A stretch of 64,000 bases of DNA from an uncultured Candidatus Saccharibacteria bacterium (GCA_964574495.1 CAZNNT010000001.1:5194-69193); one strand, 5' to 3'. Numbered from the stretch's first letter, positions 25,690-43,124 are shown. Notes: a model not told the origin generated them from the letters alone. Program-made: numbers and translations.

Positions 25690-26178
25690 TTATTTATTCT
25701 CCAAAATCCGGTTAATAATATCCGTTGTGGATAATTTTTCATCTTTGGTGTATAAAATTTCTCCGCCTATAGAACGCATCGCTTCTCTTTCTACCGCTAT
25801 GCCCGGCGTATCTTTATTTATATAATCCGGCCCCTTAATGTAATAATCGGGCTTAAAAATTTTTATTAACTCAACGGCCGTTTTGTAAGGGCTTACCATC
25901 GTAAAATCCACTGCTTTGATATTTGATACCATATAAGCTCTTTGCTCTTCATTAAAAATGGGTCTATAAGGGCCTTTTCTTTTATTTACAAATTTATCGC
26001 AGGTAACGGCCGCCACCAAAACATCGCAAAGTTTTTTTGCCGAATTAAAGTGCATTATATGCCCCGCGTGCAGCAGGTCATAGCCGCCGCAGCATAAACC
26101 CACGGTTTTGCCCTCTTTTTTTAAATTTCCGATAACTTTTTTTAATTCCTGGAGCTTGAGTGAGCCCAAAAATTTCAT
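25690..26178 (-). CDS. HIGH-motif nucleotidyltransferase (RfaE domain II/cytidylyltransferase-like), third paralog
   Basis: VGLCCGGYDLLHAGH signature; 162 aa. Confidence 0.7.
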   Translation of the reverse strand: MKFLGSLKLQELKKVIGNLKKEGKTVGLCCGGYDLLHAGHIMHFNSAKKLCDVLVAAVTCDKFVNKRKGPYRPIFNEEQRAYMVSNIKAVDFTMVSPYKTAVELIKIFKPDYYIKGPDYINKDTPGIAVEREAMRSIGGEILYTKDEKLSTTDIINRILENK

Positions 26179-29375: not shown

Positions 29376-30182
29376 TTATATCGCGGTCCAGCCGCCGTCA
29401 ACTATGAGATTATGGCCGGTGACATATCGGGATTCGTCCGATAAAAGAAAAATCAGCGGCCCGCAAATTTCTTCGGGACGGGCAAAACGCCCCAGGGGCA
29501 CTCTTTTGGAAAAATTGCTCACGAACGCTTTATTTCGCATTCTTTGGTCTTCGTCAAAAAAAATCCCGCCGGGGCTCAAGGCGTTCACGCGGATATTGTG
29601 CCTGCCGAGAAGCGCGGCAAGATATCTCGTAAAATTGATAAGACCGCCTTTGTGAAAAGCGTAATATTCGGCGTTGGCTTCTTTCGCGCCGGGATAAATT
29701 GAGGGGTCGTGCGCCACCACGCCGTAAATGGAGCCGATCTTGACTATGACTCCGGATTTTTGTTTTTTCATTATTTTAGCCGCTTCGCGCGTCATTAAAA
29801 AATTTCCGTTGACATTGACGTCCGTCGCCTTTCTGAAATTGGCCAAACTTCGCGAGGTAAAACTTTCAGCCGTCGGACGATGCACCGCGTTATTCACCAG
29901 GCCGTCAAGGCGCTTAAATTTTTTGATGGCGGCGTCCAGACATTCTTTAACCGATTTTTCATCGGTTATATCAAGCTCGCGGGCAAATAAACGCCGGCTG
30001 TCCTTCGCGATTTTATTTTTCAGTTTTAGGCATCCGGCATAATCAAGGTCGGCCAGAATCACATTGGCTCCGGCATTATATAAAGCTCCGGCAAAATGGC
30101 TGCCGAGCATGCCCGACGCTCCGGTCAGCAGGATTGTTTTGCCGCCCAAACGATAATCAGACGAGATGCGTTTCATTTTCAA
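29376..30182 (-). CDS. Classical short-chain dehydrogenase/reductase (SDR)
   Basis: TGASGMLGSHFA cofactor motif, NNAV, and the catalytic YAFHKGG (YxxxK). Confidence 0.8.
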   Translation of the reverse strand: MKMKRISSDYRLGGKTILLTGASGMLGSHFAGALYNAGANVILADLDYAGCLKLKNKIAKDSRRLFARELDITDEKSVKECLDAAIKKFKRLDGLVNNAVHRPTAESFTSRSLANFRKATDVNVNGNFLMTREAAKIMKKQKSGVIVKIGSIYGVVAHDPSIYPGAKEANAEYYAFHKGGLINFTRYLAALLGRHNIRVNALSPGGIFFDEDQRMRNKAFVSNFSKRVPLGRFARPEEICGPLIFLLSDESRYVTGHNLIVDGGWTAI

Positions 30183-31209
30183 TTTCTTTTAATAGTTTTA
30201 AAATTTCTTTTTCCTTTAATTTTCTGGCGTGCTCCGAAGAAAAAACGCGGCTTGCGGTTTTAAGCGCCGAGCCGTAACCGCTCGGATGGCTATAGCCCCA
30301 AACCTCTTTTCGCGGAGTCAAAATATACATATCTTTGGTTTCCAAGACGCCGCGAACCTCGTGGTCGGCCAGCAATTGCTCGTGCTTTTTTTCTCCCGCG
30401 CGCAGTCCCATAATTTTGGTTTTAATTTCCGAGCGTTTTTTTCCCAAAACTCCGGAGTAATATTGAATTGCCGCGCTCACGAGATTTTTCAATTTAACCG
30501 CCGGCATTTTAAAAACGAAAATCTCCTGGCCCTTGGTTAAAACGGCCGCGCGCAAAACCAAACCGACCGCCTGCGGAATGGTCATTATAAATCTGGTCAT
30601 TTCCGGATTGGTTACGGTTACTGACGAACCCTGGATAATTTGATTTTTAATCAACGGGAGTATGCTTCCGGAAGAGCCCAAAACATTTCCGAAGCGCACG
30701 CAGGTATACTTTGTTTTTTTGTCGCCGCGGTAATAATAAGAATTTAAAATCAGTTTTTCGGCCATCAGTTTAGACGCGCCTAAAACACCTTCGGGATTTA
30801 CGGCTTTATCGGTGGAAATGGAAACAACTTTATCCACGTTAAATTCCCTCGCGACATCAATAACATTCTGGGTTCCTAAAATATTCGTGGCTACGGCCTC
30901 AAAAGGGTCGTTGTCGCATATGTCCACATGCTTCATGGCTGCCGCGTGAAAAACAATGTCTATGCCCTCCATGGCTAGACGCAAACGGTTTTTATCCCGA
31001 ATGTCGCCGACAATAAAACGGACGGGATGTTCTTGTTCAAATCCTATTTCCTGCCTGAATTTATGGTGTCCATACTCGCCCCTCGCAAAAACCCGTACGC
31101 TTCTGGGACCGAAAGGAATGAGTTGCCTGACGATCTCCGAGCCGATAGAGCCGGTGCCGCCGGTCACCAAAATTCTTTTATCCTTGAACTCTTTAATAAA
31201 ATCGTTCAT
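30157..31209 (-). CDS. UDP-N-acetylglucosamine 4,6-dehydratase-like (PseB/FlaA1/CapD/LegB family)
   Basis: ILVTGGTGSIGSEIV Rossmann motif and the STDKAVNP signature typical of the CapD/PseB polysaccharide-biosynthesis dehydratase family. 350 aa. Confidence 0.75.
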   Translation of the reverse strand: MNDFIKEFKDKRILVTGGTGSIGSEIVRQLIPFGPRSVRVFARGEYGHHKFRQEIGFEQEHPVRFIVGDIRDKNRLRLAMEGIDIVFHAAAMKHVDICDNDPFEAVATNILGTQNVIDVAREFNVDKVVSISTDKAVNPEGVLGASKLMAEKLILNSYYYRGDKKTKYTCVRFGNVLGSSGSILPLIKNQIIQGSSVTVTNPEMTRFIMTIPQAVGLVLRAAVLTKGQEIFVFKMPAVKLKNLVSAAIQYYSGVLGKKRSEIKTKIMGLRAGEKKHEQLLADHEVRGVLETKDMYILTPRKEVWGYSHPSGYGSALKTASRVFSSEHARKLKEKEILKLLKEIENETHLV

Positions 31210-31331
31210 ATCTATACTTTATTTTCTACCACACCGACGGGTCTTTGCAAATACTTGCATTATTTTTTATGTATGGTAATATGTGAACGAAACAACGGCA
31301 GATGAACTAACGCCGCACAAGGAGGCAAAAT

Positions 31332-31733
31332 ATGAAAATAGACATGAAGGCAGCAGTTGAACTCATCCGAAAATTAAGTTCTTCGCATAAACCAAAAAGC
31401 AAACAAAGAAAAACCAAAATTACCGGAGCCGCAAAAGAAATGTTGCCGCATATTAAAACTCTGCCGCAAAAAACAATAGAAAAATTTGTCAGAAAAATCG
31501 CCCTAACCGAACCATGGATAGAAATCCACAGCACTAGTATTGCGGTCGCGTACGGTAGTGAAGGACCGATGTTTTTTAGGTGCATCTTCTGTGGCCTTGC
31601 AACCGAGGCACATTTAAACGGTCATTCTATACCTGAATCCAAAATCCGGCATAAAAAAGATTGCCCGCAACGCATGGCCCTGGAAATCATCGGCTTAGTC
31701 CGACGTACACGAAACACGCATACACGAGTCTGA
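31332..31733 (+). CDS. Hypothetical small protein (133 aa) with a CxxC pair
   Basis: Strong SD ACAAGGAGGCAAAAT before the ATG. FRCIFCGL ... KKDCPQ cysteines. Its stop codon lies inside the solo REP-like palindrome. Alternative antisense ORFs lack an SD. Confidence 0.4.
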   Translation: MKIDMKAAVELIRKLSSSHKPKSKQRKTKITGAAKEMLPHIKTLPQKTIEKFVRKIALTEPWIEIHSTSIAVAYGSEGPMFFRCIFCGLATEAHLNGHSIPESKIRHKKDCPQRMALEIIGLVRRTRNTHTRV

Positions 31734-31739
31734 CTTGTG
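31723..31739. repeat. Solo REP-like 17-bp palindrome (CACGAGTCTGACTTGTG), one mismatch from the RAYT-flanking copies
   Basis: Matches CACAAGTC-T-GACTTGTG at 48531 and 49305 except A to G at position 4. Confidence 0.6.
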
Positions 31740-31772
31740 TATCACGCCTCGGCGATTTGTTGCCGGGGTTTT

Positions 31773-32891
31773 TTATGTGCTATTTTTTACCATTTCGGCC
31801 AATCTCTGGCAAATATATTCAATATCCGATTTTTCAAGGCCGATATAAAAAGGCAGGGCGATTGATGAAGAACTGATTGATTCCGAAACCGGAAAATCGC
31901 CCTCGCGAAACCCGAAGGCCTTACGATAAAAATCAAAAAGATGGATTGAGGGCAAATAGGGCTTGGTTGAAATGCCGAGACCGGCTAATTTTTTAATGAC
32001 TCCGTCGCGGTCCGCTCCCGTCTTAATTCTCGCGACATAAACGAACCAGGAATGGGTATTATCGGGATGAATTTCGGGAGCCGAAATCGTTTCGCCGTAT
32101 TTTCCCAATTCTTCCGAATACCATGAAGCGATTTTTCGCCGCTCCTCTATAATTTTGGGGAGTTTTTTAAGCTGAACGATTCCCAAAGCCGCGCTTAACT
32201 CATTCATCCGGTAGTTATAGCCGAGCCGTTCGTGGTCAAGCCATTGCATATTTTCGGAACGACCTTGATTACGCAAAGACCGACAAAGGGCGTCAATCTT
32301 TTGGTCATTGGTCGTAATGACGCCGCCTTCGGTGGTGGTCATTTGCTTATTGGGATAAAAAGAAAACACCGCGGCGTCGCCGAAAGTTCCGACTTTTTTA
32401 TTTTTATGTTCGGCCATAATGCTTTCACAAGCGTCTTCCACGACTACCAGAGCGTGTTTTTTGGCAAATGCCGTTATCGGGTCCATATCGCAGGATTGGC
32501 CGAAAATATGCACCGGCAAAATCGCTTTTGTTTTGGATGTTATTTTTTTCTCAACTTCTTTGGGGTCAATATTAAAAGTGAGCGGATTGATATCGGCAAA
32601 AACCGGCTTCGCGCCAACATATAAAATCGCGTTGGCTGACGCAATAAAAGAAAAAGGCGAGGTTATAACTTCGTCTCCCGCTTTTATGCCGGAGGCGATT
32701 AAAGCCAGGTGCAGCCCGGCCGTTCCGCTTGAAACCGCGCAGGCGTAATCGGAACCGATGAGTTTAGCGAATTTATTCTCAAACTCCTCTATTTTCGGGC
32801 CGATGCTTAAAACGCCGGAACGCAAAACTTCCAGAATAATTTTTTCTTCTTCTTCGTCAAAATGCGGTTTTGCCATTGGATATTTCGGCAT
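31773..32891 (-). CDS. DegT/DnrJ-family PLP-dependent aminotransferase (PseC/LegC/PglE-like nonulosonate-pathway transaminase)
   Basis: DegT-type N-terminus (KIILEVLRSGVLSIGPKIEEFENKFAKLIGSDYACAVSSGTAGLHLAL); 372 aa; operon position next to the PseB-like gene. Confidence 0.8.
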   Translation of the reverse strand: MPKYPMAKPHFDEEEEKIILEVLRSGVLSIGPKIEEFENKFAKLIGSDYACAVSSGTAGLHLALIASGIKAGDEVITSPFSFIASANAILYVGAKPVFADINPLTFNIDPKEVEKKITSKTKAILPVHIFGQSCDMDPITAFAKKHALVVVEDACESIMAEHKNKKVGTFGDAAVFSFYPNKQMTTTEGGVITTNDQKIDALCRSLRNQGRSENMQWLDHERLGYNYRMNELSAALGIVQLKKLPKIIEERRKIASWYSEELGKYGETISAPEIHPDNTHSWFVYVARIKTGADRDGVIKKLAGLGISTKPYLPSIHLFDFYRKAFGFREGDFPVSESISSSSIALPFYIGLEKSDIEYICQRLAEMVKNST

Positions 32892-32897
32892 ATGAAT

Positions 32898-34574
32898 TTA
32901 AAAAATATTTATATCGGATTCCGAGCGTTCTTTTCTTTGGCCGGCAGCAGCCGTTTTCTCCACCTCTTTTGACGGTATGAAAACCTCGTTCCAATAGCGG
33001 AAAAGATGCGCCGGCCGAAAGACCAACGGCCTAAAAGGACGATTAAAAAATAATTTTTGCAAAATCGCGTTGACGGGGTTAAACCCCAGAAAGCTCGCGG
33101 CCCCCGTCGTTCCTGAAAAACGGCAGTTTATTTCAAAAATTTTCGCGAGCCCGCCGGATTTTCTCAATTGAAAATTGCACGGCCCTTCAACCTTCAAGGC
33201 CTTGCCGACATTCGTCACAAGTTCCTCTATTTCTTTATCGCGAACCGCCACCGCTTTATAAGTATCGCCGTCCCGCAGCCACCGGTTCATCACAATTACT
33301 CCGTAGCAGACGCCGTTATCAAAAAACGACCCGCAGGTGTATTCCTGGTCTTTTTCGGAAAGATATTCCTGAACTATAAGGTCCGGATTTTTTGATAAAG
33401 CCCCGAGCAAAGCCGGTTCATCCGAGACCAGTTGAAAACCGATTGATCGCGCGCCGATTCTCGGCTTTAAAACCAAAGGGAAGCCGGCCTCCTTCAAAAA
33501 TTCTCCAGCCCTATCCGCCAAAGCCGAGCGGACATAAGGGAAATTATGCGATTTTAAAAACTCCGCTGTTTTCCATTTATCGTCTGATATGGCCACGGCT
33601 TCGAGATTGCCAACCACCACCTTGGCGCCCGATCGCATTTCAAAATCATCTCTATTTTGGGAGAGTATCTTTAACTCCGTGTCGGTGCCGATAAAAACGG
33701 CTTCCACTCCTTCGCCCTTGCAAATTTTTTCCAAAACGCCCAAATAAGTCGGGTCGTCCGGACCGGGAACTATGTAGGCGGCATCCGCCCGGTATAGCCC
33801 CGCGGCCAGATGATTCATATCGGTCGCGATAATTCTTGTTTTTACTTTAGAAAGTTTGAGCGATTTAATAATGCTCTGACCCACGCCGGCTCCCGCGCCC
33901 GTAACCAAGACCGTGATTAAACGGGTCAAATCAAAAGCCGAATCGCCTATTTCCCGCAAGTCATTATGGACATCGCTGCCAAAAGAAAAATTATCTATAT
34001 TGCCTTTGGCGATTTCTTCCGAGACCAGATTTTTGAGCGGTTCGGCCGCGTGCTTGGCGTTGAATTCAAATTTAACGCCGTTAGCCGCGCATAATTTATA
34101 AACCTCTTCTACATATTCCCGAGGGGGAGAGTAGTTATAAAAGCGTTTGCTCATGCTGAAAGGGTGACCCAAAATATCAATTTTCGGATGGCGCGCGAGC
34201 GCCTTGGTCAATTCGTATTCTTTTTCCAAAAGTTCTTCCCGACTCATTGATTTGATGCCTTCAAAATGATGAACGCTGCCGACAATGACTTCCGCGGCGT
34301 CCAAAATGTCGTCTCGTGTGTTTAAAGAGCCGTCGTCAAGTATTTTTACTTCGCACCCCGCTCTAACGCTAAAGCCGGGGTAATTTAGACGGAGTTTTTT
34401 GATTTCGGCGACATAGTCGGAAAACCAATCCGTATTTTTATCCACGTGGTCGGCAAAAATAAGATTCAGTTGATCGCGCAAATGATTATGCTCTAATAAT
34501 TCGGCGATGGAATGCCGGCCGTCGCTGTAAGAAGAATGCATATGATTTTCCTCAAAACGGGTCTTTATGGACAT
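32898..34574 (-). CDS. Fusion protein: N-terminal PHP-domain phosphoesterase + C-terminal ATP-grasp ligase
   Basis: The N-terminal HMHSSYSDG ... H/D-rich ladder (HVDK, HHFEG, GHPF, GSDVHND) is a PHP fold. Residues 230-558 have a pre-ATP-grasp Rossmann (VLVTGAGAGVGQS) and an ATP-grasp core (DKWKTAEFL, GFPLVLKPRIGARSIG, IVQEYL, EINCRFSGTTG). Confidence 0.7.
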   Translation of the reverse strand: MSIKTRFEENHMHSSYSDGRHSIAELLEHNHLRDQLNLIFADHVDKNTDWFSDYVAEIKKLRLNYPGFSVRAGCEVKILDDGSLNTRDDILDAAEVIVGSVHHFEGIKSMSREELLEKEYELTKALARHPKIDILGHPFSMSKRFYNYSPPREYVEEVYKLCAANGVKFEFNAKHAAEPLKNLVSEEIAKGNIDNFSFGSDVHNDLREIGDSAFDLTRLITVLVTGAGAGVGQSIIKSLKLSKVKTRIIATDMNHLAAGLYRADAAYIVPGPDDPTYLGVLEKICKGEGVEAVFIGTDTELKILSQNRDDFEMRSGAKVVVGNLEAVAISDDKWKTAEFLKSHNFPYVRSALADRAGEFLKEAGFPLVLKPRIGARSIGFQLVSDEPALLGALSKNPDLIVQEYLSEKDQEYTCGSFFDNGVCYGVIVMNRWLRDGDTYKAVAVRDKEIEELVTNVGKALKVEGPCNFQLRKSGGLAKIFEINCRFSGTTGAASFLGFNPVNAILQKLFFNRPFRPLVFRPAHLFRYWNEVFIPSKEVEKTAAAGQRKERSESDINIF

Positions 34575-34583
34575 GCCGGCATT

Positions 34584-35699
34584 CTATAGGTTTTTTAAAA
34601 ATTTTTCAATCGCTTTAGCGATGCCGTCGGCGACTCGTCCGCCGCGATAGACCGACGGCTTACGCCTTAAATTCAAACGAAAACGCGGCGATATCGCCTT
34701 ACGGACCCCTTTTAAAATGTCGTCCGGGTCATAATCGCTGAAAATCACGTTTGATCCGGCTTCGCGGTTTTGCTGGCGACGGCCGACATTCACAAAAGGC
34801 GTTTTTAAATAATCCCCCTCCATAAGCCCCGAACTGCTGTTGCCGATTAAAGCCGCGCTTTCTTTCATCAATCCCAGATAATCCGCGCGTTCAATATGCC
34901 GATAAACGCGGAAATGGGGATTTTTGCGAAGCGCCTCTATTTTTTTTATGAAATATCCGCTGCCTTCGTCGGAATTGGGATACAAAACTATTTTTTCGTC
35001 TTGAAAATCAAGGCGCCGAAGCGCGGATACGACCGAATTAATCTGTTTGAAGATCGGCGCGCCGTCAAGAATCGTCGGATGATGAACGACAAGAAACCAC
35101 CGTTTCGCGATATCAAGATGAAAACGCGAGGACAATTCTTTTCTTTTGGGCAAGGAATTCCGGTTAAGCCGGTCTAATCCGGCGGAACCGACTACTTTTA
35201 CTAAAGCGGGGTTGGCGCCAAGAGCAATTATATTTTTTTTGCTTTTGGCCGTCTGCACCAAATGGAGTTTAGAAAAAAGAGTGATGGCGTTACGCAAATA
35301 CTGATCCACCGTCGGCCCGGAAACATCTCCGCCGGAGACATGAATAACCGGAATTCCGAGATGCAGTCCCGCGACGGCCGCGGCAAAACCCTCGTCGCGA
35401 TCGGCAATAACCAAAAGCGCGTCAACTTTGCGGCGCTTAAGATAGCGCCCTATGCCGGCAATCTCCTTGCTTAGCGCTTCAAGTTGATTGTCAAATTCTC
35501 CGACCCGAACCACGGCGTCAACGCGCGCGTCTTTTTTCACCTCGTTTAAAGTCAACCCGAACCGACGCTGGGTATGCATGCCGGTCGCGAGTATTTTTAA
35601 ATTTATTTTTGGACTTTTAAGCAGGCGAAAAATAGTTGACCTGAAAAGCCCCCATTCCGCGCGCGTTCCGGTAACGAATAAAATTGTTTTTTTATTCAT
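34584..35699 (-). CDS. UDP-N-acetylglucosamine 2-epimerase family, hydrolysing type (NeuC/LegG-like)
   Basis: ILFVTGTRAEWGL, HVSGGDVSG and a GNSSSGL-type C-terminal motif are characteristic of Epimerase_2 (WecB/NeuC). 371 aa. Confidence 0.8.
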   Translation of the reverse strand: MNKKTILFVTGTRAEWGLFRSTIFRLLKSPKINLKILATGMHTQRRFGLTLNEVKKDARVDAVVRVGEFDNQLEALSKEIAGIGRYLKRRKVDALLVIADRDEGFAAAVAGLHLGIPVIHVSGGDVSGPTVDQYLRNAITLFSKLHLVQTAKSKKNIIALGANPALVKVVGSAGLDRLNRNSLPKRKELSSRFHLDIAKRWFLVVHHPTILDGAPIFKQINSVVSALRRLDFQDEKIVLYPNSDEGSGYFIKKIEALRKNPHFRVYRHIERADYLGLMKESAALIGNSSSGLMEGDYLKTPFVNVGRRQQNREAGSNVIFSDYDPDDILKGVRKAISPRFRLNLRRKPSVYRGGRVADGIAKAIEKFLKNL

Positions 35700-36747
35700 A
35701 GTGGCCTTTTTTTATAAGCGTCTCTGCAGGAATGTCAATTTTTGCCGCCTTGCCGATTATTTTTCGCAGGTATTTGGGTTCCAGACCCGTGCCCGGGCGT
35801 TTAATGGCCAGATTACTGCGGCTGAATATTTCGCCTTTTTTAATGTCGCGTAAAACAACAACGCTTTTTCTCGCAAGCGCTTTATAGGCCGATTCGCTTT
35901 TAGAAGGCCTTTTTTCGGCCGAACCCTTAAGTAAGGGAATCATTCTTATCTGCCTGACCATTTCTTTAAATTCTTCCGGCTCCAAAGACGCTTTATGGTC
36001 GGGTCCCGGCAGATTTTTGTTTAAAGTCAGATGCTTTTCAATAATTTCCGCGCCCATGGCCGCGGCCAAAACCGAAGCGAACGCGCCGAGCGTGTGGTCG
36101 GAATAACCGGCCAAAACCCCAAACTTTTTACGAAATGTCTCCAAAACCCGCAGATTGGCTTCCTCCGGCTTTGAGGGATAATCGGTGGTGCACTGCAAAA
36201 GAATAATTTTATTGTTTCCGGATTTTCTGATAGTTTTTACGGCTTCTTTAACTTCGGACATTGTTGCCATTCCGGTTGAAATTATCATCGGTTTTTTGAA
36301 GCGCGCGGCGTATTCCAAAACCGGCAGATTGGTCAGTTCCCCCGAGCCGAATTTAAAAGCCGTAGCGCCCAAAGCGCGGACTCTGTCTACGCTCGCGAAT
36401 CCGCCGTGGGGCGAGGAAAGAAAAATAATTTTTTCCCCGCGGCAATACTCCGCGACTTTTTTAAAATCCTCATCGCTTAATTCCAACCTTTTAATCATTT
36501 CCAGCTGATTCTCGCTTCTGCCGATATTCTTTTTTTGGTAAGAGGCCATTTTTCCCGCCGAAGTTACCACCTCTTCGGCTTTAAAATCCTGAAATTTTAC
36601 GGCATCCGCGCCGGCTTTTTTTGCCGCTTTAACGAGTTTCAGCGCCAGCGATAATTTACCGTTATGGTTTACTCCGGCTTCGGCTATCACGAAAACCGGC
36701 TGTCCCTGGCCGATGAACTTTCCGCCTATTTTGAGATTAGAAACCAT
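35692..36747 (-). CDS. N-acylneuraminate (nonulosonate) synthase, NeuB/LegI/PseI family with a C-terminal SAF domain
   Basis: VFVIAEAGVNHNGKLSLALKLVKAAKKAGADAVKFQ is the NeuB TIM-barrel N-terminus. The C-terminal ~60 aa are SAF/antifreeze-like (KKGEIFSRSNLAIKRPGTG). Confidence 0.85.
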   Translation of the reverse strand: MVSNLKIGGKFIGQGQPVFVIAEAGVNHNGKLSLALKLVKAAKKAGADAVKFQDFKAEEVVTSAGKMASYQKKNIGRSENQLEMIKRLELSDEDFKKVAEYCRGEKIIFLSSPHGGFASVDRVRALGATAFKFGSGELTNLPVLEYAARFKKPMIISTGMATMSEVKEAVKTIRKSGNNKIILLQCTTDYPSKPEEANLRVLETFRKKFGVLAGYSDHTLGAFASVLAAAMGAEIIEKHLTLNKNLPGPDHKASLEPEEFKEMVRQIRMIPLLKGSAEKRPSKSESAYKALARKSVVVLRDIKKGEIFSRSNLAIKRPGTGLEPKYLRKIIGKAAKIDIPAETLIKKGHYE

Positions 36748-37714
36748 GAAAATATGCCCTCTTTAAAGCTAAAGCGTTTTTTAAGTCCGAAGCGGATTCT
36801 TCCAAATTACTGTACCCCTTTTTCTCGCGCGTTTTTTTTATAAAAAACGCGAGTTCTTTGCGGTACATATCATTGCCTCCGGCTTTGATTTTAAAAATCT
36901 TTGTTCTCTTGTCGGTATGAAGTTTTATTTCATTATCTTCACTGCCTCGCCGCAGAATCTTCTCCCAGATTAGCGTCCCGCGGCTCCCCAAAATCTCGCA
37001 GTATCTTTTTCCCGGAACCTGAAAATAATCCTGATGAACCGAAATTATTTTGCCCTTTTCGGAAACAAAAAGACCTTCAGCCATGTCTTCGGATTTAATT
37101 TTCAGGTCTGAAATATTTCCGGAAAATCCTTTAACGAACCGCAATTTTTCTCCGAGAAGCCAGGCGGGATAATTTATCTCGTGAATTAAATCCAAAGTTA
37201 CGCCTCCGCCTTTTTTGGAGTCGCCGGAATAGCTTTTTCGGTAATCCCCCTTTCTCCAAGTTCTCAAATCCTTTCCGGCCGAAACGCGCATGGAAAGTAT
37301 GACGCTGATTTTTTTTTGCTTGATCATTTTTTTCAAAAATACGAGCGGCTTAAAAAATTGGAGGCAGTAAGCCACGAAAAACACCGGCTTTCGCTTTTTA
37401 ATTTCTTTTCGTATTTTGGCGATGTCTTTTAAAGAATGGGATATCGGTTTTTCCACGAAAATGCCCGCGGGATTATGACGGAGGCAGCGCAAAATCGTCG
37501 CGGCGTGCTTGTGAGTTTCGTTGGTTATGAAAAAAATATCCGGGCCGGCGGCGTAAAATTTTTTTTCCGAAGAAAAAAACCGGATATTCTTATCCGAACT
37601 TTTCACATCCTTTCTTTTGGTCAGCACGTTAAGGATTGAGCGCGGGAAAAGTTCGCGGATGTTGGCCGCGTGCCTCTGGCCGATTGAACCGTAACCGATA
37701 AGCCCCATGTTCAT
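36737..37714 (-). CDS. Gfo/Idh/MocA-family NAD(P)-dependent oxidoreductase
   Basis: MNMGLIGYGSIGQRHAANI Rossmann N-terminus and an EKP motif (FVEKPIS). Confidence 0.7.
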   Translation of the reverse strand: MNMGLIGYGSIGQRHAANIRELFPRSILNVLTKRKDVKSSDKNIRFFSSEKKFYAAGPDIFFITNETHKHAATILRCLRHNPAGIFVEKPISHSLKDIAKIRKEIKKRKPVFFVAYCLQFFKPLVFLKKMIKQKKISVILSMRVSAGKDLRTWRKGDYRKSYSGDSKKGGGVTLDLIHEINYPAWLLGEKLRFVKGFSGNISDLKIKSEDMAEGLFVSEKGKIISVHQDYFQVPGKRYCEILGSRGTLIWEKILRRGSEDNEIKLHTDKRTKIFKIKAGGNDMYRKELAFFIKKTREKKGYSNLEESASDLKNALALKRAYFHGF

Positions 37715-37718
37715 AAAA

Positions 37719-38453
37719 TTATTTTAAGTTCTTAATTCTATTTTTTATAACCCCTTTCTTTTTGTATAAAATTTCGGCCAGCGCCCAGTCCTCCGGCGCG
37801 TCCAAATCCACCGACCTCCATTTATCGCAAACCACGGCTTTGGTTTTTTTGGTCAAAACCGTTTTTTCTTTCAGAAGCGCGGATGTTTTAACAATGTAGA
37901 CAAAACAGCCGTTGAGGAGATAAGCGACATTCCAATCCTGAATGTTGGACGACTTGAATTTAACCTTATTTGCTAAAATGATATTTTTATTTTTATCCAG
38001 CCAATAAAGCCGGGGGTGGGTTGGAGCTACAGTTAAAACCGTCGTGGCGTCGGTTCGTTTCATCAAATCCCACGAGGCCTCAATGTCTCTATTTTCGCGA
38101 AGGGGCGAGGTGGTCTGCAAAATTACAATATGAGTCGGCTCATATTTTTCATCTTTTTTTAGACGTTTTAACAGAAACACTATGGCGTCAATCACCTGCG
38201 CCTTATCGCCCGCTAAACTTTTCGGCCTTAAATACGGAACTTCGGCGCCGTATTTTTTGGAAATGGAGGCGATTTTGGGCGAGTCGGTATCAACCACCAC
38301 GCGGTCAATCCATGGAATTTTTTTGGCCTGCAAAATCGTGTAAGCAATCAGCGGTTTGCCCAGAAAATTTCTTATGTTTTTATTGCGGATTCTTTTTGAA
38401 CCGGCTCTGGCGGGAATTACGGCTAAAACCGTTTTATTTTTCTTAATTTTCAT
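37719..38453 (-). CDS. Acylneuraminate cytidylyltransferase (CMP-nonulosonate synthetase, NeuA/LegF/PseF family)
   Basis: AVIPARAGSKRIRNKNIRNFLGKPLIAYTI is the canonical CTP_transf_3 N-terminus. 244 aa. Confidence 0.85.
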   Translation of the reverse strand: MKIKKNKTVLAVIPARAGSKRIRNKNIRNFLGKPLIAYTILQAKKIPWIDRVVVDTDSPKIASISKKYGAEVPYLRPKSLAGDKAQVIDAIVFLLKRLKKDEKYEPTHIVILQTTSPLRENRDIEASWDLMKRTDATTVLTVAPTHPRLYWLDKNKNIILANKVKFKSSNIQDWNVAYLLNGCFVYIVKTSALLKEKTVLTKKTKAVVCDKWRSVDLDAPEDWALAEILYKKKGVIKNRIKNLK

Positions 38454-38458
38454 GGCTA

Positions 38459-39763
38459 TTAAACCAGGCCTTTGAGCGGCGTTTGATTTTCGCCGGGATC
38501 TTCGCCTGCCGGACCGCCGTTAGACACTACTTTTTTCAACCGCCATAAATCGTCTTCTCCCTTTTTCCAAACATGGGGCATTCTGTATTTATCCATAATT
38601 TTCCAGAAATGCTCTTCGCTGATTCCCAGATAATCCAAAAAATTCTGAAAATATTTTTTAGGAAATTCGTGGTCGTATCTATGCACCAGCGAAACCGCCT
38701 CTTCCCTTGTGATGTGGCCGCATCTGATTTCACTGCAGGCCTCGCGGGTAGCCCGCCCGTAGCCGAATTTAATATAGGCCAAGAGCCAATGGAACGGGTC
38801 CAATTGGTCGTCAATGCTGCAGTGCTTGGTATAAGTGCCTTCGGTACGTTCGGTGTTGGCTTCAAATCCGGTGTGTTTTGAAGCGTAGTAAAAATTTTCC
38901 TGCGGCACCCAGAGTTTATAGTAAGACCACCAGTGCATCTGCAAATCAAGTTTTTTAATTTCATCAAGCGCCGGCGGACGGTAAAAATCAAACTGATTAT
39001 CTTTAAGCTCGGAAGCCGAAAAAATTCCCATTTTAAAACCTTCCGCGAGCAAAACATCCACTCCGGCTCCTTTAAAATAAAGCTCGTCCCAATCCTCGGG
39101 CGATTCATAGGGTTTGTTTTCGTTTTTAAACGACCCGCCGTATTCAATCTCGCCGTTTTCGCCGTAAAAAATCAGGGGGATTTTAAAGCGATGGGCCATC
39201 TGAAAAGCCAGCGCTTTTTGCCCGAAAGTGAACGGCTCCCACGGATCGCCCTTCAATTCAAAAGCCACGCGGGCAAGTTTGCGATGCAAAATTCCGTTCG
39301 GCCAAACGAGCACTCCGTCAAGCCCGCTCTGAATAAAATTAAAATAATTCTGCCAGCCGATATCGGTATAAATAAACGGCGCCCAGGTTACGGCTAAAGG
39401 ATGCATTCCGCGGGCTTTCAATTGATGCGTTACCAAAGCGCTGTCTTTTCCCGCGCTGCCCGGAACAATGACGTCAAAACCGCCGTTTTTAGACCGGTGT
39501 TTGTCCAGAAGCGCTTCCAATTCTTTTTCCCGTTTAGCCCAATCAATTACTCCGCCGAATTTTTTTTCGGCGTATTTGCAGGCGTTGCAGATGCCGTCGG
39601 CGTCAAACTCGGTTCTGGGACGCTGATTGGATATGACGCATTTTTTGCAAAATAAAATTTTTTGAGGCAGTAACTTCAGCTGCCGGTCCTTGGTCTTAAA
39701 TTCATACTGCCGATATTTTGTTTCATCTATGTTTAATTTAGGAAATTTATATTTCATGACCAA
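38459..39763 (-). CDS. N-acetyl sugar amidotransferase (PP-loop ATPase; PseA/WbpG/LfnA family)
   Basis: PP-loop-like VPGSAGKDS, an N-terminal Cys cluster (CKKC ... CNAC) and ~430 aa are typical of the LPS/flagellin-glycan amidotransferase family that makes acetamidino groups. Confidence 0.7.
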   Translation of the reverse strand: MVMKYKFPKLNIDETKYRQYEFKTKDRQLKLLPQKILFCKKCVISNQRPRTEFDADGICNACKYAEKKFGGVIDWAKREKELEALLDKHRSKNGGFDVIVPGSAGKDSALVTHQLKARGMHPLAVTWAPFIYTDIGWQNYFNFIQSGLDGVLVWPNGILHRKLARVAFELKGDPWEPFTFGQKALAFQMAHRFKIPLIFYGENGEIEYGGSFKNENKPYESPEDWDELYFKGAGVDVLLAEGFKMGIFSASELKDNQFDFYRPPALDEIKKLDLQMHWWSYYKLWVPQENFYYASKHTGFEANTERTEGTYTKHCSIDDQLDPFHWLLAYIKFGYGRATREACSEIRCGHITREEAVSLVHRYDHEFPKKYFQNFLDYLGISEEHFWKIMDKYRMPHVWKKGEDDLWRLKKVVSNGGPAGEDPGENQTPLKGLV

Positions 39764-39774
39764 TCCAAACTATA

Positions 39775-41307
39775 TCATAAATTACGCTCTTTGCAAAACG
39801 CTTCCAGAATTTTTAATCCGGCTTGTCCGCTTCGCTCCGGATGAAACTGGGTCGCAAAAATATTGTCTTTTTTTACCGCGGAGCAGAATCTTTGGCCTCC
39901 GTATTCCGAAACGGCGGCCACCACGCTTTGGTCTTCCGGTTCCGGATAATAAGAGTGCACGAAATAGACCATTTCATCGCCGCCGGCGTTTTGGCGCTTC
40001 GGATTTTTCAAATAATTCCATCCTATATGAGGCAGTTTATATCTGTTTAAATTAACTTCGGACGGTTTTTTAAAAGATACGACCCGGCCGCCAATCAAAT
40101 CAAGGCCTTTGTGCAAGCCGAACTCTTCGCTTTCCGAAAAAAGAAGCTGCATACCCAGACATATCCCTAAAAACGGTTTGCCGGATTTAACTTCTTCCAC
40201 AAGCGGCTCAATAAGACCCATATTTTTCAGGGCGTTCATTCCGTGCTCATACGCTCCGACTCCGGGCAAAACCAGACATTTGACATTTTTAAATTCCGAA
40301 GGACTTTCAATTACTTTTACGCTTTTTCCCAGACGCTCAAACGCTTTCAAAACGCTTTTTACATTATTAAGTTTGTAATTAATCACGCCGATGTCGCGCT
40401 TTTGGCCGATTTTTAACAAGTCCTCGCGGCTTTCCTTGCCTATGTCAATTCCCAAATTTTCGTCTCCCAGCTGCCTTAAAGTGAATCGATTATAGTCAAA
40501 GATGCCGGCCGCGGACGCCGACCCCGACTTTTTTTTCGCGTCCGAAACATTCCTCACCTTAATTCCGGCTTTCAAAAGCGCGGTTTTGACATCATCAATA
40601 TCCGCTTCTTTATAGTGAAAAATGGAGGCCGCGGCCACCGCGTCGGCGTCAGTCGTCTTGAAACAATCAACAAAATCCTCCGGTTTAGCCGCGCCGCCCG
40701 AAGCAATGACCGGAATTGAAACGGCTCCAGACACTTCTTTTACAAGCTCCAGATCAAGCCCGTTTTTAGCGCCTTCCATATCAACCGAGGTCAATAAAAT
40801 CTCGCCCGCGCCCAATTCTTCGCCTCTTTTGGCCCACGAAACGGCATTCAGGCCGGTTGTTTGCCGGCCGTTATCGGTGTAGGCCTCCCATTTGCCCGGC
40901 GATATTTTTTTGGCTTCAATTGAAAGCACGACGCACTGCGACCCGAAACGCTCCGAGGCCTCCTTAATCAATCGCGGATTTTTGGTGGCGGCCGTGTTTA
41001 CGGCCACCTTGTCGGCTCCGGCTCGCAATAAATTTTCTATGTCTTCAATCGTACGAACTCCGCCGCCGGCGGTAAAAGGAATAAATATTTTTTCGGTCGC
41101 GCGCTCCACAATATTTAAAAGATTCTTACGGCCGTATAAACTGGCGACGGTATCTAAATAAATCAATTCATCAGCGCCCTGCAAATAATATTCCTCGGCT
41201 ATGTCTTCCGGCCTGCCCATCACGCGCAAACATTCAAACTGGACGCCCTTAACCACATTGGGGCCCTTAATATCCAGTCGGGCAATGACGCGTATGTTTT
41301 TGTCCAT
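39775..41307 (-). CDS. Fused imidazole-glycerol-phosphate-synthase-like protein: HisF-like cyclase (N-terminal) + HisH-like glutamine amidotransferase (C-terminal); WbuZ/WbuY-type partner of the amidotransferase
   Basis: N-half: ARLDIKGPNVVKGVQFE ... FTAGGGVRTIEDIENLLRAGADKVAVNTAA (HisF barrel). C-half: class I GATase with GICLGMQLL (catalytic Cys) and FHPERS (His). Confidence 0.8.
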   Translation of the reverse strand: MDKNIRVIARLDIKGPNVVKGVQFECLRVMGRPEDIAEEYYLQGADELIYLDTVASLYGRKNLLNIVERATEKIFIPFTAGGGVRTIEDIENLLRAGADKVAVNTAATKNPRLIKEASERFGSQCVVLSIEAKKISPGKWEAYTDNGRQTTGLNAVSWAKRGEELGAGEILLTSVDMEGAKNGLDLELVKEVSGAVSIPVIASGGAAKPEDFVDCFKTTDADAVAAASIFHYKEADIDDVKTALLKAGIKVRNVSDAKKKSGSASAAGIFDYNRFTLRQLGDENLGIDIGKESREDLLKIGQKRDIGVINYKLNNVKSVLKAFERLGKSVKVIESPSEFKNVKCLVLPGVGAYEHGMNALKNMGLIEPLVEEVKSGKPFLGICLGMQLLFSESEEFGLHKGLDLIGGRVVSFKKPSEVNLNRYKLPHIGWNYLKNPKRQNAGGDEMVYFVHSYYPEPEDQSVVAAVSEYGGQRFCSAVKKDNIFATQFHPERSGQAGLKILEAFCKERNL

Positions 41308-41322
41308 TGGCTTGCCTTACGT

Positions 41323-43101
41323 TTATTTTTTGATAATAAGAGTTCTATTAAGCAGTAAGGCATCCAAGTCGGATTCAATAAAAGTGTGCCAGGCGTCTTC
41401 GGCGTTCCTGACAATCGGCTCGCCGTGCAGATTAAACGAGGTGTTTAAGAGCGCTCCCACACCGGTCTGTTTTTCAAATTCCTGAATCAAGGCGTAATAT
41501 TCGGGGTTGGACTCTTCTTCCAAAATCTGGGGACGCGCCGTAAAATCAGCCGGATGAATCGCGGCTTTCAGGTGTTCTTGCCCTAAAAGCGTAGTATCAA
41601 AAGCCATTGTCATAAAGGGCGACTTTAAATTTTTGGGATTAACCAGGTAATCATTCGCGCGATAATCAAGAATTGAAGGCGTAAAAGGCATCCAGAAATC
41701 ACGGTATTTTATTTTGTCGTTGATTAAACGGATGTTGTCAAAATTGGATGGATGGCAAAGAATGGAACGATTGCCCAGAGCTCTCGCCCCAAACTCGCCC
41801 CTCCCCGCGCATCTTGCCACAATTTTGTTTTTAGCGAGCAGGTCCGCGATTTGCTTATTTGACGCTTCGTAAACTATCTCGTAACCGGCAATATCATATT
41901 TCGCGATAAGTTTTTTTATTTCGTCATCGGTTATAGCGTAGCCCAGATAAACATTGGTTGGCGTTTTTGGAGCAATCCCCTTTTCCGCAAAAAGCGCGAA
42001 TGCCGCCCCTATCGCCGTTGATTCATCCCCGCCCGATGCCGGCACAAAAAAATAATTCAATCCGTCAATTTCGGCAAGCGTCTTATTGGCCTTAACATTC
42101 ATAGCGAGCCCTCCGCTAAAAACAAGCGAGTCAACCCGCAGATGGTTTAAAACATTTTTCGCCCAGACGGCTAAAACCTCTTCCACCCATTTCTGGAGGC
42201 CGCCGGCAATGCCGTCAAAACGGACGCCTTCCAGCTTGTCTTTGAAATAAAAATACATGTCCGACGGCTTTTTATTCCATTTAAAATCCAGGCCGTCGGC
42301 GACCAGGGTTTCCTTAAAGACATCGTAGGCCGGCTTTAAAACATAGTCCTTGGCGTAGGGCGCTAAACCCATAACTTTATATTCGTGCTCAAAAGGCCTC
42401 ATTCCGAGAAGTAAAGTAATATAGCGATAGATTCTTGCCAGATTGCACATGGCGCTTCCATGAATTTTTTCAAGTTTCCCGTTTTCGGCGACATAAATAG
42501 AGGCGTTTTCGCCGTCGCCCCAGCCGTCGGCCGTAATTACGCCGATTCTTTTTGAGCGCTCCAAGGGCGAGGCGTAATAAGCGTAACCGGCGTGAGCCAA
42601 ATGATGATTGACGAATATAACCTTTCCTGGATCAATGCCCAATTGCTTGACGGCAACTTTGATTCTTTCCTTATTAAATGCCTCGCTCCATTTTTCTTTC
42701 GGCTCGGTTTTCATAAAGCCGAAATCGTAATATTCTTTTTCGGGAAAATTAAAACGCTTTTCCTGCATCACGTTTTCCCAAAAAGACGATTCTTTATTTT
42801 CAAGTAAAACCGGCTTCCAGTATTCATTCATTTCGCGAAGGTAATCTGAAACGCGAAATCTGGTGATTCTTTTTATTTTTAACTGCGCGGGGTCCGTAAT
42901 CTGGCAGGTATAGGCGACAAAATCCACCTCTTCCGGCTTTACGCCCGTAAGACGAAAGGCCTCTTCCACGCTTTTGAAGGGATAGCCAACTTCGTTTTTG
43001 GACCTCTCAATCCGCTCTTCGGAAGAGGCGTATAAAACTTCGCCGTCTTTTATCAGCGCGGCTGTCGCGTTATGGTCCTCATTTATTCCCAGGATAATCA
43101 T
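41323..43101 (-). CDS. Carbamoyltransferase (NodU/CmcH/TobZ family)
   Basis: MIILGINEDHNATAALIKDGEVLYASSEERIERSKN is the Kae1/YgjD-like N-terminus of Carbam_trans_N. The C-terminal domain is Carbam_trans_C-like. 592 aa. Confidence 0.8.
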   Translation of the reverse strand: MIILGINEDHNATAALIKDGEVLYASSEERIERSKNEVGYPFKSVEEAFRLTGVKPEEVDFVAYTCQITDPAQLKIKRITRFRVSDYLREMNEYWKPVLLENKESSFWENVMQEKRFNFPEKEYYDFGFMKTEPKEKWSEAFNKERIKVAVKQLGIDPGKVIFVNHHLAHAGYAYYASPLERSKRIGVITADGWGDGENASIYVAENGKLEKIHGSAMCNLARIYRYITLLLGMRPFEHEYKVMGLAPYAKDYVLKPAYDVFKETLVADGLDFKWNKKPSDMYFYFKDKLEGVRFDGIAGGLQKWVEEVLAVWAKNVLNHLRVDSLVFSGGLAMNVKANKTLAEIDGLNYFFVPASGGDESTAIGAAFALFAEKGIAPKTPTNVYLGYAITDDEIKKLIAKYDIAGYEIVYEASNKQIADLLAKNKIVARCAGRGEFGARALGNRSILCHPSNFDNIRLINDKIKYRDFWMPFTPSILDYRANDYLVNPKNLKSPFMTMAFDTTLLGQEHLKAAIHPADFTARPQILEEESNPEYYALIQEFEKQTGVGALLNTSFNLHGEPIVRNAEDAWHTFIESDLDALLLNRTLIIKK

Positions 43102-43124
43102 AAAATATTTTTTATAATACGATA

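Follow-up and report, generated by a model that had tools for sequence, protein, structure and literature searches.

A PHP/ATP-grasp fusion as candidate N-acylating enzyme in a probable legionaminic acid-type gene cluster of a Candidatus Saccharibacteria bacterium

Introduction

The gene cluster described here raises the question of how the amino sugar precursor of a nonulosonic acid may be N-acylated when no N-acetyltransferase gene is found beside the other genes of the pathway. The cluster lies in a stretch of 64,000 nucleotides (the window; all coordinates are window positions) from an uncultured Candidatus Saccharibacteria bacterium (GCA_964574495.1, CAZNNT010000001.1:5194-69193). In this window, genes with unambiguous family assignments in profile searches form a row on the minus strand from 43101 to 29376 (Table 1). 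By its gene families, the region almost certainly encodes a pathway to a cytidine monophosphate (CMP)-activated nonulosonate, as an initial annotation of this DNA had proposed. In the uridine diphosphate (UDP)-based legionaminic acid (Leg) pathway of B. subtilis the acylation step is indispensable, and an spsD mutant makes no Leg (PMC7439481). On balance, the cluster appears to encode a Leg-type pathway in which the acetyl-CoA-dependent N-acetyltransferase step has been replaced by an ATP-dependent amide ligase, namely the ATP-grasp half of a protein whose other half is a PHP phosphoesterase.

Gene families were assigned by Pfam and NCBIfam profile searches, complemented by sequence matches to the PDB. 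Cluster genes are on the minus strand unless marked otherwise.

Results

Absence of an N-acetyltransferase gene and a candidate for its step

A homologue scan for the ligase/phosphoesterase module, with one genome per species and with queries searched across the whole locus (10-kb flanks), yielded 80 loci, i.e., 10 close relatives of 53-64% identity and 70 distant ones of 34-45% identity. Genomic loci, in this set and elsewhere, are numbered with the prefix L. The initial annotation had stated that the cluster holds no GNAT or LbH acetyltransferase. This was confirmed and extends to the scanned open reading frames (ORFs) of at least about 100 amino acids across the 64 kb, in which Pfam scans detected no Hexapep, PglD_N or GNAT domain. 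A PglD-like gene was found in none of the 10 close relatives, and among 110 otherwise unlabelled ORFs of 13 nonulosonate-type loci no Hexapep or GNAT family was common to three or more. Since a regular expression for hexapeptide repeats returned mostly false positives, acetyltransferase calls rest on the Pfam scans. Because acylation is indispensable in B. subtilis, no acetyltransferase was found in the scanned ORFs, and a gene for a PHP/ATP-grasp fusion sits between NeuC and DegT, this fusion is most likely the best candidate for the N-acylation step. The nine functions named in the initial annotation were all found where it had placed them, with very strong profile scores. Its inventory had counted the 558-amino-acid gene at 32898-34574 without describing it, and this gene encodes the fusion. 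Thus, the pathway called complete there has its core enzymes, but it is complete only given an N-acylating enzyme, and the candidate for it had been overlooked.

Besides the families given in Table 1, the fusion matched ATP-grasp_3 and the NCBIfam model NF009402 ('carbamoyl phosphate synthase-like protein'; 326 bits, cut-off 218). Its AlphaFold (AF2) model consists of two domains, with a mean predicted local distance difference test score (pLDDT) of 95.3 and a predicted template modelling score (pTM) of 0.93. The top Foldseek match of the ATP-grasp half was the structural-genomics protein 2pn1 (target-normalised template modelling score of 0.89), followed by carbamoyl phosphate synthase (CPSase), PurK, RizA, PylC and PurT as looser fold neighbours. 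Beyond 2pn1, the fold search thus returned generic ATP-grasp enzymes, which name no acid substrate. In an alignment of homologues, K333, K370, E411, Q469, E481, N483 and R485 of the ATP-grasp half were invariant. Residues H13, D18, D42, H43, E75, H102, H137, D201 and H203 of the PHP half were at least 95% conserved among 76 full-length fusions, and going by general knowledge of PHP enzymes they presumably correspond to the canonical metal ligands. The deposited protein P0001 has 547 amino acids and begins at Met12, 11 residues short of the 558-amino-acid ORF. With this start, the conserved N-terminus is truncated and the HxH motif of PHP loses its first His; the alignment of the 558-amino-acid ORF with homologues begins at residue 5.

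Conservation of the ligase/phosphoesterase module

About 80 full-length relatives of the fusion were found (49-65% identity), and every one with a named source came from bacteria of the candidate phyla radiation (CPR). The closest relatives of the cluster genes were also in CPR genomes. Two loci from Minisyncoccia (L004 and L016) were nearly syntenic with the window, comprising HisFH, WbuX, NeuA, Gfo, a short-chain dehydrogenase/reductase (SDR), NeuB, NeuC, PHP-ATP-grasp, DegT and dehydratase, and no acetyltransferase was found in these two operons. The position of the fusion between NeuC and DegT was conserved, and the 2-epimerase gene directly preceded the fusion gene in L002, L003, L004 and most other nonulosonate-type loci. 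Among the close relatives, NeuC was a neighbour in all 10 loci, and NeuB, WbuX, DegT and the Polysacc_synt_2 dehydratase in nine each.

The distant relatives came from Sinorhizobium/Ensifer pSymB, cyanobacteria, Chloroflexota, Gemmatimonadota, sphingomonads, Bacteroidota and DPANN archaea. In these 70 loci, NeuC (three), NeuB (two) and WbuX (one) were rare, while DegT was present in 37 and the dehydratase in 32, i.e., in 46 and 41 of all 80 loci, respectively. A PglC-type Bac_transf phosphoglycosyl transferase (PGT), found beside none of the close relatives, was a neighbour in 36 distant loci, and a PglD-like acetyltransferase in five. Two gene orders recurred: 'PGT, PHP, ATP-grasp, extended SDR, DegT, PglF-like dehydratase' and 'Wzc, Metallophos, ATP-grasp, SDR, PGT'. 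By their gene content, the distant loci are best read as a bacillosamine-type pathway in which another enzyme has taken over the PglD step. What all module versions share would then be a nucleoside diphosphate (NDP)-4-amino-6-deoxy-hexose and not a nonulosonate, which puts the ligase at the step of the C4 amine. Acylation of the C4 amine by the ATP-grasp domain is rated as fairly probable.

The coupling of the ATP-grasp ligase with the dehydratase/aminotransferase pair was accompanied by an equally conserved coupling with a phosphoesterase, which was encoded at most 2.5 kb from the ligase in 71 of the 80 loci (PHP in 52, the unrelated Metallophos in 19). PHP is fused to the ligase in CPR and is a separate, overlapping gene in Sinorhizobium. 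A calcineurin-like Metallophos protein stood in for PHP beside a stand-alone ATP-grasp gene in 19 of the 70 distant loci, e.g., in L043, L053, L058, L069 and L071, further in L076, L079, L081 and L083, and also in L005, the flagellar glycosylation island of Dongshaea marina. As unrelated folds replace each other in the same position, the pattern argues that phosphoester hydrolysis belongs to the chemistry of the module.

Two other functions of the PHP domain were considered and rejected. A role as the 3'-phosphoadenosine 5'-phosphate (PAP) phosphatase of sulfation was discarded because the window contains no sulfation genes, Sinorhizobium already possesses a CysQ-like gene, and Metallophos occurs in sulfation-free loci. 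A role as NDP-sugar hydrolase was discarded because PGT loci need the nucleotide to be kept on the sugar, and NeuC performs this step in nonulosonate loci.

Variants of the module were also observed. A split form (PHP, ATP-grasp and an NAD(P) oxidoreductase) is carried by pSymB of S. meliloti ABS7 (L086; KEM44_10295/10300/10305) and was seen in 75 Sinorhizobium plasmid records, where CysDN/CysQ-like genes, a sulfotransferase, an RTX protein and a PglF-like dehydratase are neighbours. Natural fusions of Bac_transf with ATP-grasp exist in the ATP-grasp family, as do overlapping PglC-type PGT genes. An artificial PGT + ATP-grasp query recovered natural fusions of this architecture and no named Neisseria protein. 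A FemAB-like or Acetyltransf_6 protein followed or lay near the ATP-grasp gene in the cyanobacterial loci L027, L031, L035 and L036, in L019 and in L003 (18759-19817), and the same FemAB-like/ATP-grasp pairing occurs in the C. difficile type B flagellin locus. This pairing points to an amino-acid acyl group that undergoes further extension in those lineages. Taken together with the extended SDR, the FemAB-like genes would suit acyl groups in other lineages that are amino acids or can be reduced.

Core pathway enzymes

The core enzymes of a CMP-nonulosonate pathway were assigned by profiles. The sub-family profiling that the initial annotation had proposed for discriminating between Leg and pseudaminic acid (Pse) was run and, taken with the PDB matches, favoured the Leg type on balance. 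The placement of the synthase and the 2-epimerase was checked in the same way, and the NeuB/NnaB and NeuC/NnaA cut-offs were both passed. The synthase scored 427 bits with TIGR03569 (NeuB/NnaB; cut-off 400) and 295 bits with the PseI model, below the cut-off of 340 bits. Its nearest PDB entry was B. subtilis SpsE (1vli, 230 bits), followed by PseI (8h2c, 199 bits) and meningococcal NeuB (197 bits). SpsE is required for Leg synthesis in the UDP-based pathway (PMC7439481). For the 2-epimerase, the nearest PDB entries were 5xvs/5zlr, a hydrolysing guanosine diphosphate (GDP)/UDP-N,N'-diacetylbacillosamine 2-epimerase (169 bits), with human GNE at 114 bits. Profile scans of the cluster and the scanned window ORFs detected no PseG-like (Glyco_tran_28_C) and no PseH-like/GNAT gene. 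Because a NeuC/LegG-type epimerase and an SpsE-like synthase occur with a WbuX similar to the Legionella enzyme, and PseG and PseH are absent, the route is likely to be of the Leg type, via a 2-epimerised 2,4-diamino-2,4,6-trideoxyhexose. The NeuC-type route and the nearest characterised relatives would imply the D-glycero-D-galacto configuration.

The remaining core enzymes were less specific. The dehydratase scored 283 bits with the PseB model (cut-off 408) and 72 bits with the GDP-type LegB model, and owing to the latter score the pathway is probably UDP-based. Its PDB matches were 6bwc (264 bits), PseB (203 bits), FnlA (197 bits), CapE (191 bits) and PglF (187 bits). The aminotransferase DegT scored 328 bits with the PseC and 293 bits with the LegC model (cut-off 420 for the latter), both below the cut-offs, so that its membership is at family level only; the nearest PDB entry was GDP-perosamine synthase (291 bits). 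The cytidylyltransferase scored 168 bits with the PseF model (cut-off 206), and its nearest PDB entries were NeuA and CMP-N-acetylneuraminic acid synthetases.

Acetamidino and carbamoyl tailoring

The acetamidino machinery named in the initial annotation was recovered. WbuX, an N-acetyl-sugar amidotransferase (NASAT) scoring above the curated cut-off, matched the L. pneumophila NASAT 8wex with 317 bits. Its translation contains the tetracysteine motif CxxC...GxCxxC (CKKC...GICNAC) and the PP-loop variant SAGKDS in place of SGGxDS, the motifs being those defined in PMC10607449. The adjacent HisF-HisH protein scored 305 bits with the NCBIfam model for hisF (cut-off 295), 274 with WbuZ (cut-off 300), 201 with HisH and 196 with AglZ/HisF2 (cut-off 310). 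As the same fusion adjoins the WbuX gene in L004, L013, L014 and L057, its context favours the role of an ammonia-delivering WbuZ/WbuY-type partner. WbuX and HisF-HisH together should convert the N-acetyl group derived from N-acetylglucosamine (GlcNAc) to an acetamidino group, which would become N5 of the nonulosonate. The WbuX/WbuY/WbuZ, WbpG, PseA and LpNASAT systems combine a PP-loop tetracysteine amidotransferase with HisH/HisF-like ammonia partners, an arrangement that the window probably shares; it differs from them in having HisF and HisH as a single protein of 510 amino acids.

The O-carbamoyltransferase belongs to the NodU/CmcH/TobZ family, with a Kae1-like N-terminal and a YrdC-like C-terminal domain that both scored above their Pfam cut-offs. 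The nearest PDB entries were 7xb6, GdmN, NovN and TobZ, and all solved relatives are O-carbamoyltransferases. With the NodU equivalog model it scored 105 bits, below the cut-off of 1000. The gene is closely linked to HisFH, with 15 nt between the two, and was found in none of the 10 close-relative operons. Five of the 70 distant loci contain distant homologues (27-29% identity), and three of these five have no phosphoesterase. Upstream of HisFH, where the window has the carbamoyltransferase gene, L004 (1-2378) and L016 carry genes for ATP-sulfurylase, adenosine 5'-phosphosulfate (APS) kinase and a sulfotransferase. This place looks like a variable decoration slot for sulfate or carbamoyl, and the carbamoyltransferase is best described as a variable, lineage-specific tailoring function that is not conserved in this type of operon. 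The initial annotation had predicted a nonulosonate with an acetamidino group, a carbamoyl group or both. The enzyme family was upheld; as the gene is missing from the close relatives and a sulfation set occupies its slot in L004 and L016, carbamoylation of the nonulosonate is only one possibility, and the acceptor may be a hydroxyl group of the sugar or of its acyl chain. The operon has putative acetamidino tailoring and probably carbamoyl tailoring, too.

Organization of the gene cluster

The order of transcription is carbamoyltransferase, HisF-HisH, WbuX/NASAT, CTP_transf_3, Gfo/Idh/MocA, NeuB, NeuC, PHP/ATP-grasp and DegT, followed after 563 nt by the dehydratase and the overlapping SDR gene. 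From the carbamoyltransferase to DegT, the genes are separated by 15, 11, 5, 4, 9 and 6 nt or overlap by 11 and 8 nt according to the ORF coordinates. The tight packing claimed in the initial annotation was therefore found for this part, with gaps of 4-15 nt and overlaps of 8-11 nt, but the row is broken before the dehydratase. The cluster consists of two units, split at this gap, which holds a gene on the opposite strand. At its lower end the row does not stop at 30157 as described (30157-43101), although the named genes lie within these limits, but runs on into the SDR gene. Ten of the eleven co-directional genes claimed were found; the eleventh, a 92-amino-acid minus-strand ORF (31307-31585), was rejected, having no family match and being antisense to the better-supported ORF at 31332-31733.

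Table 1. Features of the nonulosonate gene cluster and its surroundings, in order of transcription of the cluster (bit scores of Pfam profiles unless named otherwise)
Feature	Coordinates	Strand	Length (aa)	Profile scores and remarks
O-carbamoyltransferase (NodU/CmcH/TobZ)	41323-43101	-	592	Carbam_trans_N 96, Carbam_trans_C 194; first gene of upstream unit
HisF-like cyclase/synthase fused to HisH-like glutaminase	39775-41307	-	510	His_biosynth 227, GATase 71
WbuX/NASAT-type PP-loop N-acetyl-sugar amidotransferase	38459-39763	-	432	TIGR03573 318 (cut-off 203); length from codon-3 ATG (likely start)
CMP-nonulosonate synthetase (NeuA/LegF/PseF family)	37719-38453	-	244	CTP_transf_3 88
Gfo/Idh/MocA oxidoreductase	36737-37714	-	325	GFO_IDH_MocA and C-terminal domains
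Nonulosonate synthase (NeuB/LegI type) with SAF	35692-36747	-	351	NeuB 300, SAF 37
Hydrolysing NDP-sugar 2-epimerase (NeuC/LegG type)	34584-35699	-	371	TIGR03568 321 (cut-off 236)
PHP phosphoesterase (~1-215) and ATP-grasp carboxylate-amine ligase (~216-558)	32898-34574	-	558	PHP 39 (cut-off 26), PylC-like_N 60, ATPgrasp_Ter 41
NDP-4-keto-sugar C4 aminotransferase, pyridoxal phosphate-dependent (DegT)	31773-32891	-	372	DegT_DnrJ_EryC1 408; last gene of upstream unit
Small opposite-strand ORF, basic, Cys/His-rich	31332-31733	+	133	AAGGAGG 7 nt before ATG
Soluble UDP-GlcNAc 4,6-dehydratase (PseB/Pen/PglF)	30157-31209	-	350	Polysacc_synt_2 327; STDKAVNP; first gene of downstream unit
Classical SDR, PtmA-like	29376-30182	-	268	adh_short_C2 179; overlaps dehydratase stop
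Capsule_synth (PF05159, KpsS-like)	45702-47228	+	508	42; divergent to operon

The product of the small ORF at 31332-31733 gave zero matches in Pfam and NCBIfam scans. Directly behind it lies a terminator-like hairpin (31746-31769) with a T-run, the strongest such hairpin of the region. This ORF interrupts the cluster and probably stands outside the nonulosonate pathway. A consensus scan returned promoter-like sites at 43142-43114 (minus strand) upstream of the carbamoyltransferase and at 31287-31259 upstream of the dehydratase. Both are only suggestive, since the total of such sites was no higher than in shuffled sequence. The start codons of the carbamoyltransferase gene and of a divergent gene for an 858-amino-acid YfhO-like membrane protein (TTG start) are 23 nt apart (43101-43125), and one of the two is probably annotated too long.

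The two oxidoreductase genes are accessory. The Gfo/Idh/MocA gene is an accessory gene of some such operons, holding the same relative position in L004, L014, L016, L057 and the Leg-type block of Dongshaea. The SDR scored 188 bits with PRK09186 and 138 bits with the PtmA model, both below the cut-offs. An SDR gene of this accessory kind occurs in part of the Leg-type clusters, and one was found in L004, L006, L016, L057 and the Dongshaea Leg block.

Wider glycan locus and host

From about 13 kb on, the window is one large glycan locus with further DegT genes, epimerases, methyltransferases, glycosyltransferases, a Wzy_C/TPR protein and a radical SAM enzyme. Paralogues of Capsule_synth stand beside nonulosonate operons in L007 (two), L009 and L012 (two), and the Capsule_synth protein of the window gave a very weak match (25 bits) to the 'BFO_1060 family glycosyltransferase' model. 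It may be regarded as a reasonable candidate for the CMP-nonulosonate glycosyltransferase. The DNA polymerase III gamma/tau gene (8383-9447) had named relatives only in Patescibacteria (Niyogibacteria, Giovannonibacteria, Ryanbacteria and Tagabacteria; 45-60% identity).

Directly downstream of DegT (22021-23154) and epimerase (23151-24185) genes lies a pair for a thiamine pyrophosphate-dependent E1 alpha/beta enzyme (20014-21958, minus strand; E1_dh; Transket_pyr + Transketolase_C), of a type that could furnish a keto-sugar with a two-carbon branch. Three RfaE/HldE-like nucleotidyltransferase genes on the minus strand (18337-19863, 16994-17500 and 25690-26178), one of them fused to a PfkB kinase, point to at least one nucleotide-heptose or similar pathway. 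Within the glycan locus, a gene for an IS200-like Y1 transposase (48550-49251, minus strand) is flanked by a methyltransferase gene and a GT1 glycosyltransferase gene. Rfam and ARAGORN found tRNA-Gln (anticodon TTG; 7968-8039, minus strand) as the only RNA gene of the window.

Discussion

Proposed pathway

The following order of steps would be consistent with the gene content. The Polysacc_synt_2 dehydratase would turn UDP-GlcNAc into a UDP-4-keto-6-deoxy sugar, to which DegT would add the C4 amine. The ATP-grasp domain would activate a carboxylic acid as acyl phosphate and join it to this amine, and the fused PHP domain would strip the phosphate carried by the acid. The NeuC/LegG-type enzyme would then free UDP and epimerise C2, the NeuB-type synthase would condense the hexose with phosphoenolpyruvate, and NeuA would form the CMP-sugar. 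As for tailoring, WbuX with HisF-HisH would turn the N5-acetyl group stemming from GlcNAc into acetamidino, and the O-carbamoyltransferase would modify a hydroxyl group, which may belong to the sugar itself or to the hydroxy-acyl chain. These steps would lead to CMP-Leg5Am7(acyl), optionally O-carbamoylated.

It is conceivable, at somewhat below even chances, that the acid substrate is phosphorylated. A glyceroyl group derived from phosphoglycerate is the leading guess for the acyl group, by analogy with the glyceramido sugar GATDH, and a doubtful one; phosphoserine, phosphoglycolate and similar acids are alternatives. With both glyceroyl and carbamoyl groups, the sugar would have a calculated neutral monoisotopic mass of about 422.16 Da, and of 379.16 Da if the carbamoyl group is missing; the values for Leg5Ac7Ac and Leg5Am7Ac are 334.138 and 333.154 Da, respectively. 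The 5-acetamidino/7-hydroxyacyl pattern recalls Pse5Am7Gra, which has been reported for Tannerella. The abbreviations Am, Gra and Gc occur in PMC5420450. In its widest form, the proposal is that a bifunctional enzyme of CPR/Patescibacteria, with a bacillosamine-type version in many phyla, ligates a phosphorylated hydroxy- or amino acid (e.g., 3-phosphoglycerate) and then dephosphorylates the product, bypassing acetyl-CoA and here leading to a triply tailored nonulosonate (5-acetamidino, 7-hydroxyacyl, O-carbamoyl). As a whole, this is tentative and rather unlikely to hold in every part.

Comparison with known systems

Three precedents together make a ligase followed by a phosphatase plausible. 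Pyl of B. cereus ATCC 14579 is an ATP-grasp enzyme that N-acylates the C4 amine of UDP-4-amino-6-deoxy-N-acetylhexosamine with 2-oxoglutarate, and its gene accompanies those for a dehydratase, an aminotransferase and a small PGT of the UDP-yelosamine pathway (PMC11626204; Hwang et al. 2014, as cited in secondary literature). It resembles the enzyme proposed here in function and gene context, N-acylation by an ATP-grasp enzyme beside a dehydratase/aminotransferase pair replacing acetylation. It differs in using 2-oxoglutarate, in that no phosphoesterase partner is mentioned, and in that its product is not fed to a nonulosonate synthase. In Neisseria PglB2, the acetyltransferase domain known from PglB is replaced by an ATP-grasp domain, and strains with PglB2 produce the 4-glyceramido sugar GATDH instead of N,N'-diacetylbacillosamine (diNAcBac; PMC11130364 and PMC6959607). 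The likeness lies in function and architecture, with ATP-grasp for acetyltransferase and glyceroyl for acetyl; PglB2 differs in being fused to a PGT and not to a phosphatase, and its sugar goes straight to protein O-glycosylation. In C. jejuni capsule synthesis, the amidoligase Cj1438C works with a phosphorylated co-substrate, and its phosphate is afterwards cleaved off by the phosphatase Cj1435 (PMC11800397). This pair shares ATP-dependent amide formation with a phospho-co-substrate and a dedicated phosphatase acting afterwards. However, there the carboxylate comes from the sugar and the amine from the phospho-compound, the phosphatase is of the HAD type, and the enzymes act on the growing polymer. 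ATP-grasp genes, not characterised biochemically, are likewise on record for two flagellin glycan loci, Shewanella sfm and that of C. difficile type B.

The UDP-based CMP-Leg pathways (B. subtilis SpsM/C/D/G/E/F; LegG 5xvs/5zlr; the L. pneumophila Leg5Am7Ac O-antigen) share the five core steps and NASAT with the window. In contrast to these, the window lacks SpsD/LegH/PglD, has the PHP/ATP-grasp fusion in its place, a fused HisF-HisH and an extra O-carbamoyltransferase, and comes from a CPR host. The new element is most likely the phosphatase/ATP-grasp fusion standing in for the acetyltransferase within a known kind of pathway.

Alternative explanations

Several observations weigh against the reading of a Leg-type pathway with N-acylation by the fusion. 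Across the family, either H or Q occupies the first position of the PHP HxH motif (H11 in the window protein), and the literature searched yielded no biochemical study of any member of the module. The extended SDR that follows ATP-grasp in 46 of the 70 distant loci and the FemAB-like protein that follows it in several loci are left unexplained by the model, and a PIG-L deacetylase near some loci would permit acylation at N2 and not at N4. The acetyltransferase could also be encoded outside the 64-kb window, which is only part of the contig. In that event the product might be ordinary Leg5Am7Ac or Leg5Ac7Ac, and the fusion might serve a later decoration, e.g., amidation of the C1 carboxylate or attachment of an acid or amino acid to the finished sugar or glycan. 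Such a function would agree with Cj1438C-type amidoligases, which act on carboxylates of polymerised sugars with a phosphatase following, with the Shewanella ATP-grasp SfmE, which affects a late extra mass on the flagellin nonulosonate, and with the five distant loci that hold both a PglD-like gene and ATP-grasp. It is nevertheless improbable: most distant loci lack NeuB/NeuC and keep DegT, the dehydratase and a PglC-type PGT, so that the shared substrate is the NDP-amino-hexose, and nothing else in those loci can acylate its C4 amine; in addition, no acetyltransferase occurs in any of the 10 close operons. Alternatively, the ATP-grasp domain might replace the acetyltransferase with an unphosphorylated acid (2-oxoglutarate, an amino acid, formate or acetate), and PHP might act separately in hydrolysing a nucleotide or pyrophosphate by-product or in proofreading. 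Pyl is described without a phosphatase, the FemAB-like genes of cyanobacterial loci and C. difficile type B suggest an amino-acid acyl group, and the close neighbours by fold include PurT, PurK and L-amino-acid ligases; with PurK, CPSase and PurT among these neighbours, bicarbonate, formate or another unphosphorylated acid is possible. The retention of a phosphoesterase of two unrelated folds, often fused or overlapping, in 71 of the 80 loci is hard to fit to a housekeeping side reaction, and in the Sinorhizobium loci the role of PAP phosphatase is already met by the CysQ-like gene. This explanation is regarded as unlikely, to about the same degree as a later decoration.

The third question is stereochemistry. 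The dehydratase, the aminotransferase and the cytidylyltransferase all scored below the curated Pse and Leg equivalog cut-offs, and each gave its best score with a Pse model (PseB, PseC and PseF, respectively). The closest solved relative of the dehydratase is 6bwc, a CapD-family protein of Bacillus, which we take to be the Pen enzyme of a Pse route. The Gfo/Idh/MocA and SDR oxidoreductases could, moreover, change the stereochemistry. These points would suit a Pse-type product or another stereoisomer (8-epi-Leg, 4-epi-Leg or acinetaminic type) in place of Leg proper. Against this stand the absence of a PseG-type hydrolase and of PseH, the handling of the NDP-sugar by a hydrolysing 2-epimerase of the NeuC/LegG type, and a synthase that falls below the PseI cut-off, passes that of NeuB/NnaB and is closest to SpsE. 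A stereoisomer of this kind is thus held to be an improbable product, and the Leg-type assignment was retained.

Significance

The literature search found no paper joining nonulosonic acids with Patescibacteria, nothing joining 'carbamoyl-phosphate synthase' with flagellin nonulosonates, and nothing joining glyceroyl-Pse with phosphoglycerate. Nonulosonic acids are major surface determinants, and Patescibacteria depend on cell-cell contact with their hosts. The operon described here points to a conserved route to a nonulosonate without an acetyl-CoA-dependent acetyltransferase. The ATP-grasp ligase and the phosphoesterase form a widespread two-part module that reaches beyond nonulosonates, being found from Patescibacteria to DPANN archaea. 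Identification of the module's acid substrate would account for N-acyl groups other than acetyl on sugars of the bacillosamine type and on nonulosonates in many loci, and the module would give a new enzyme for making sialic-acid analogues.

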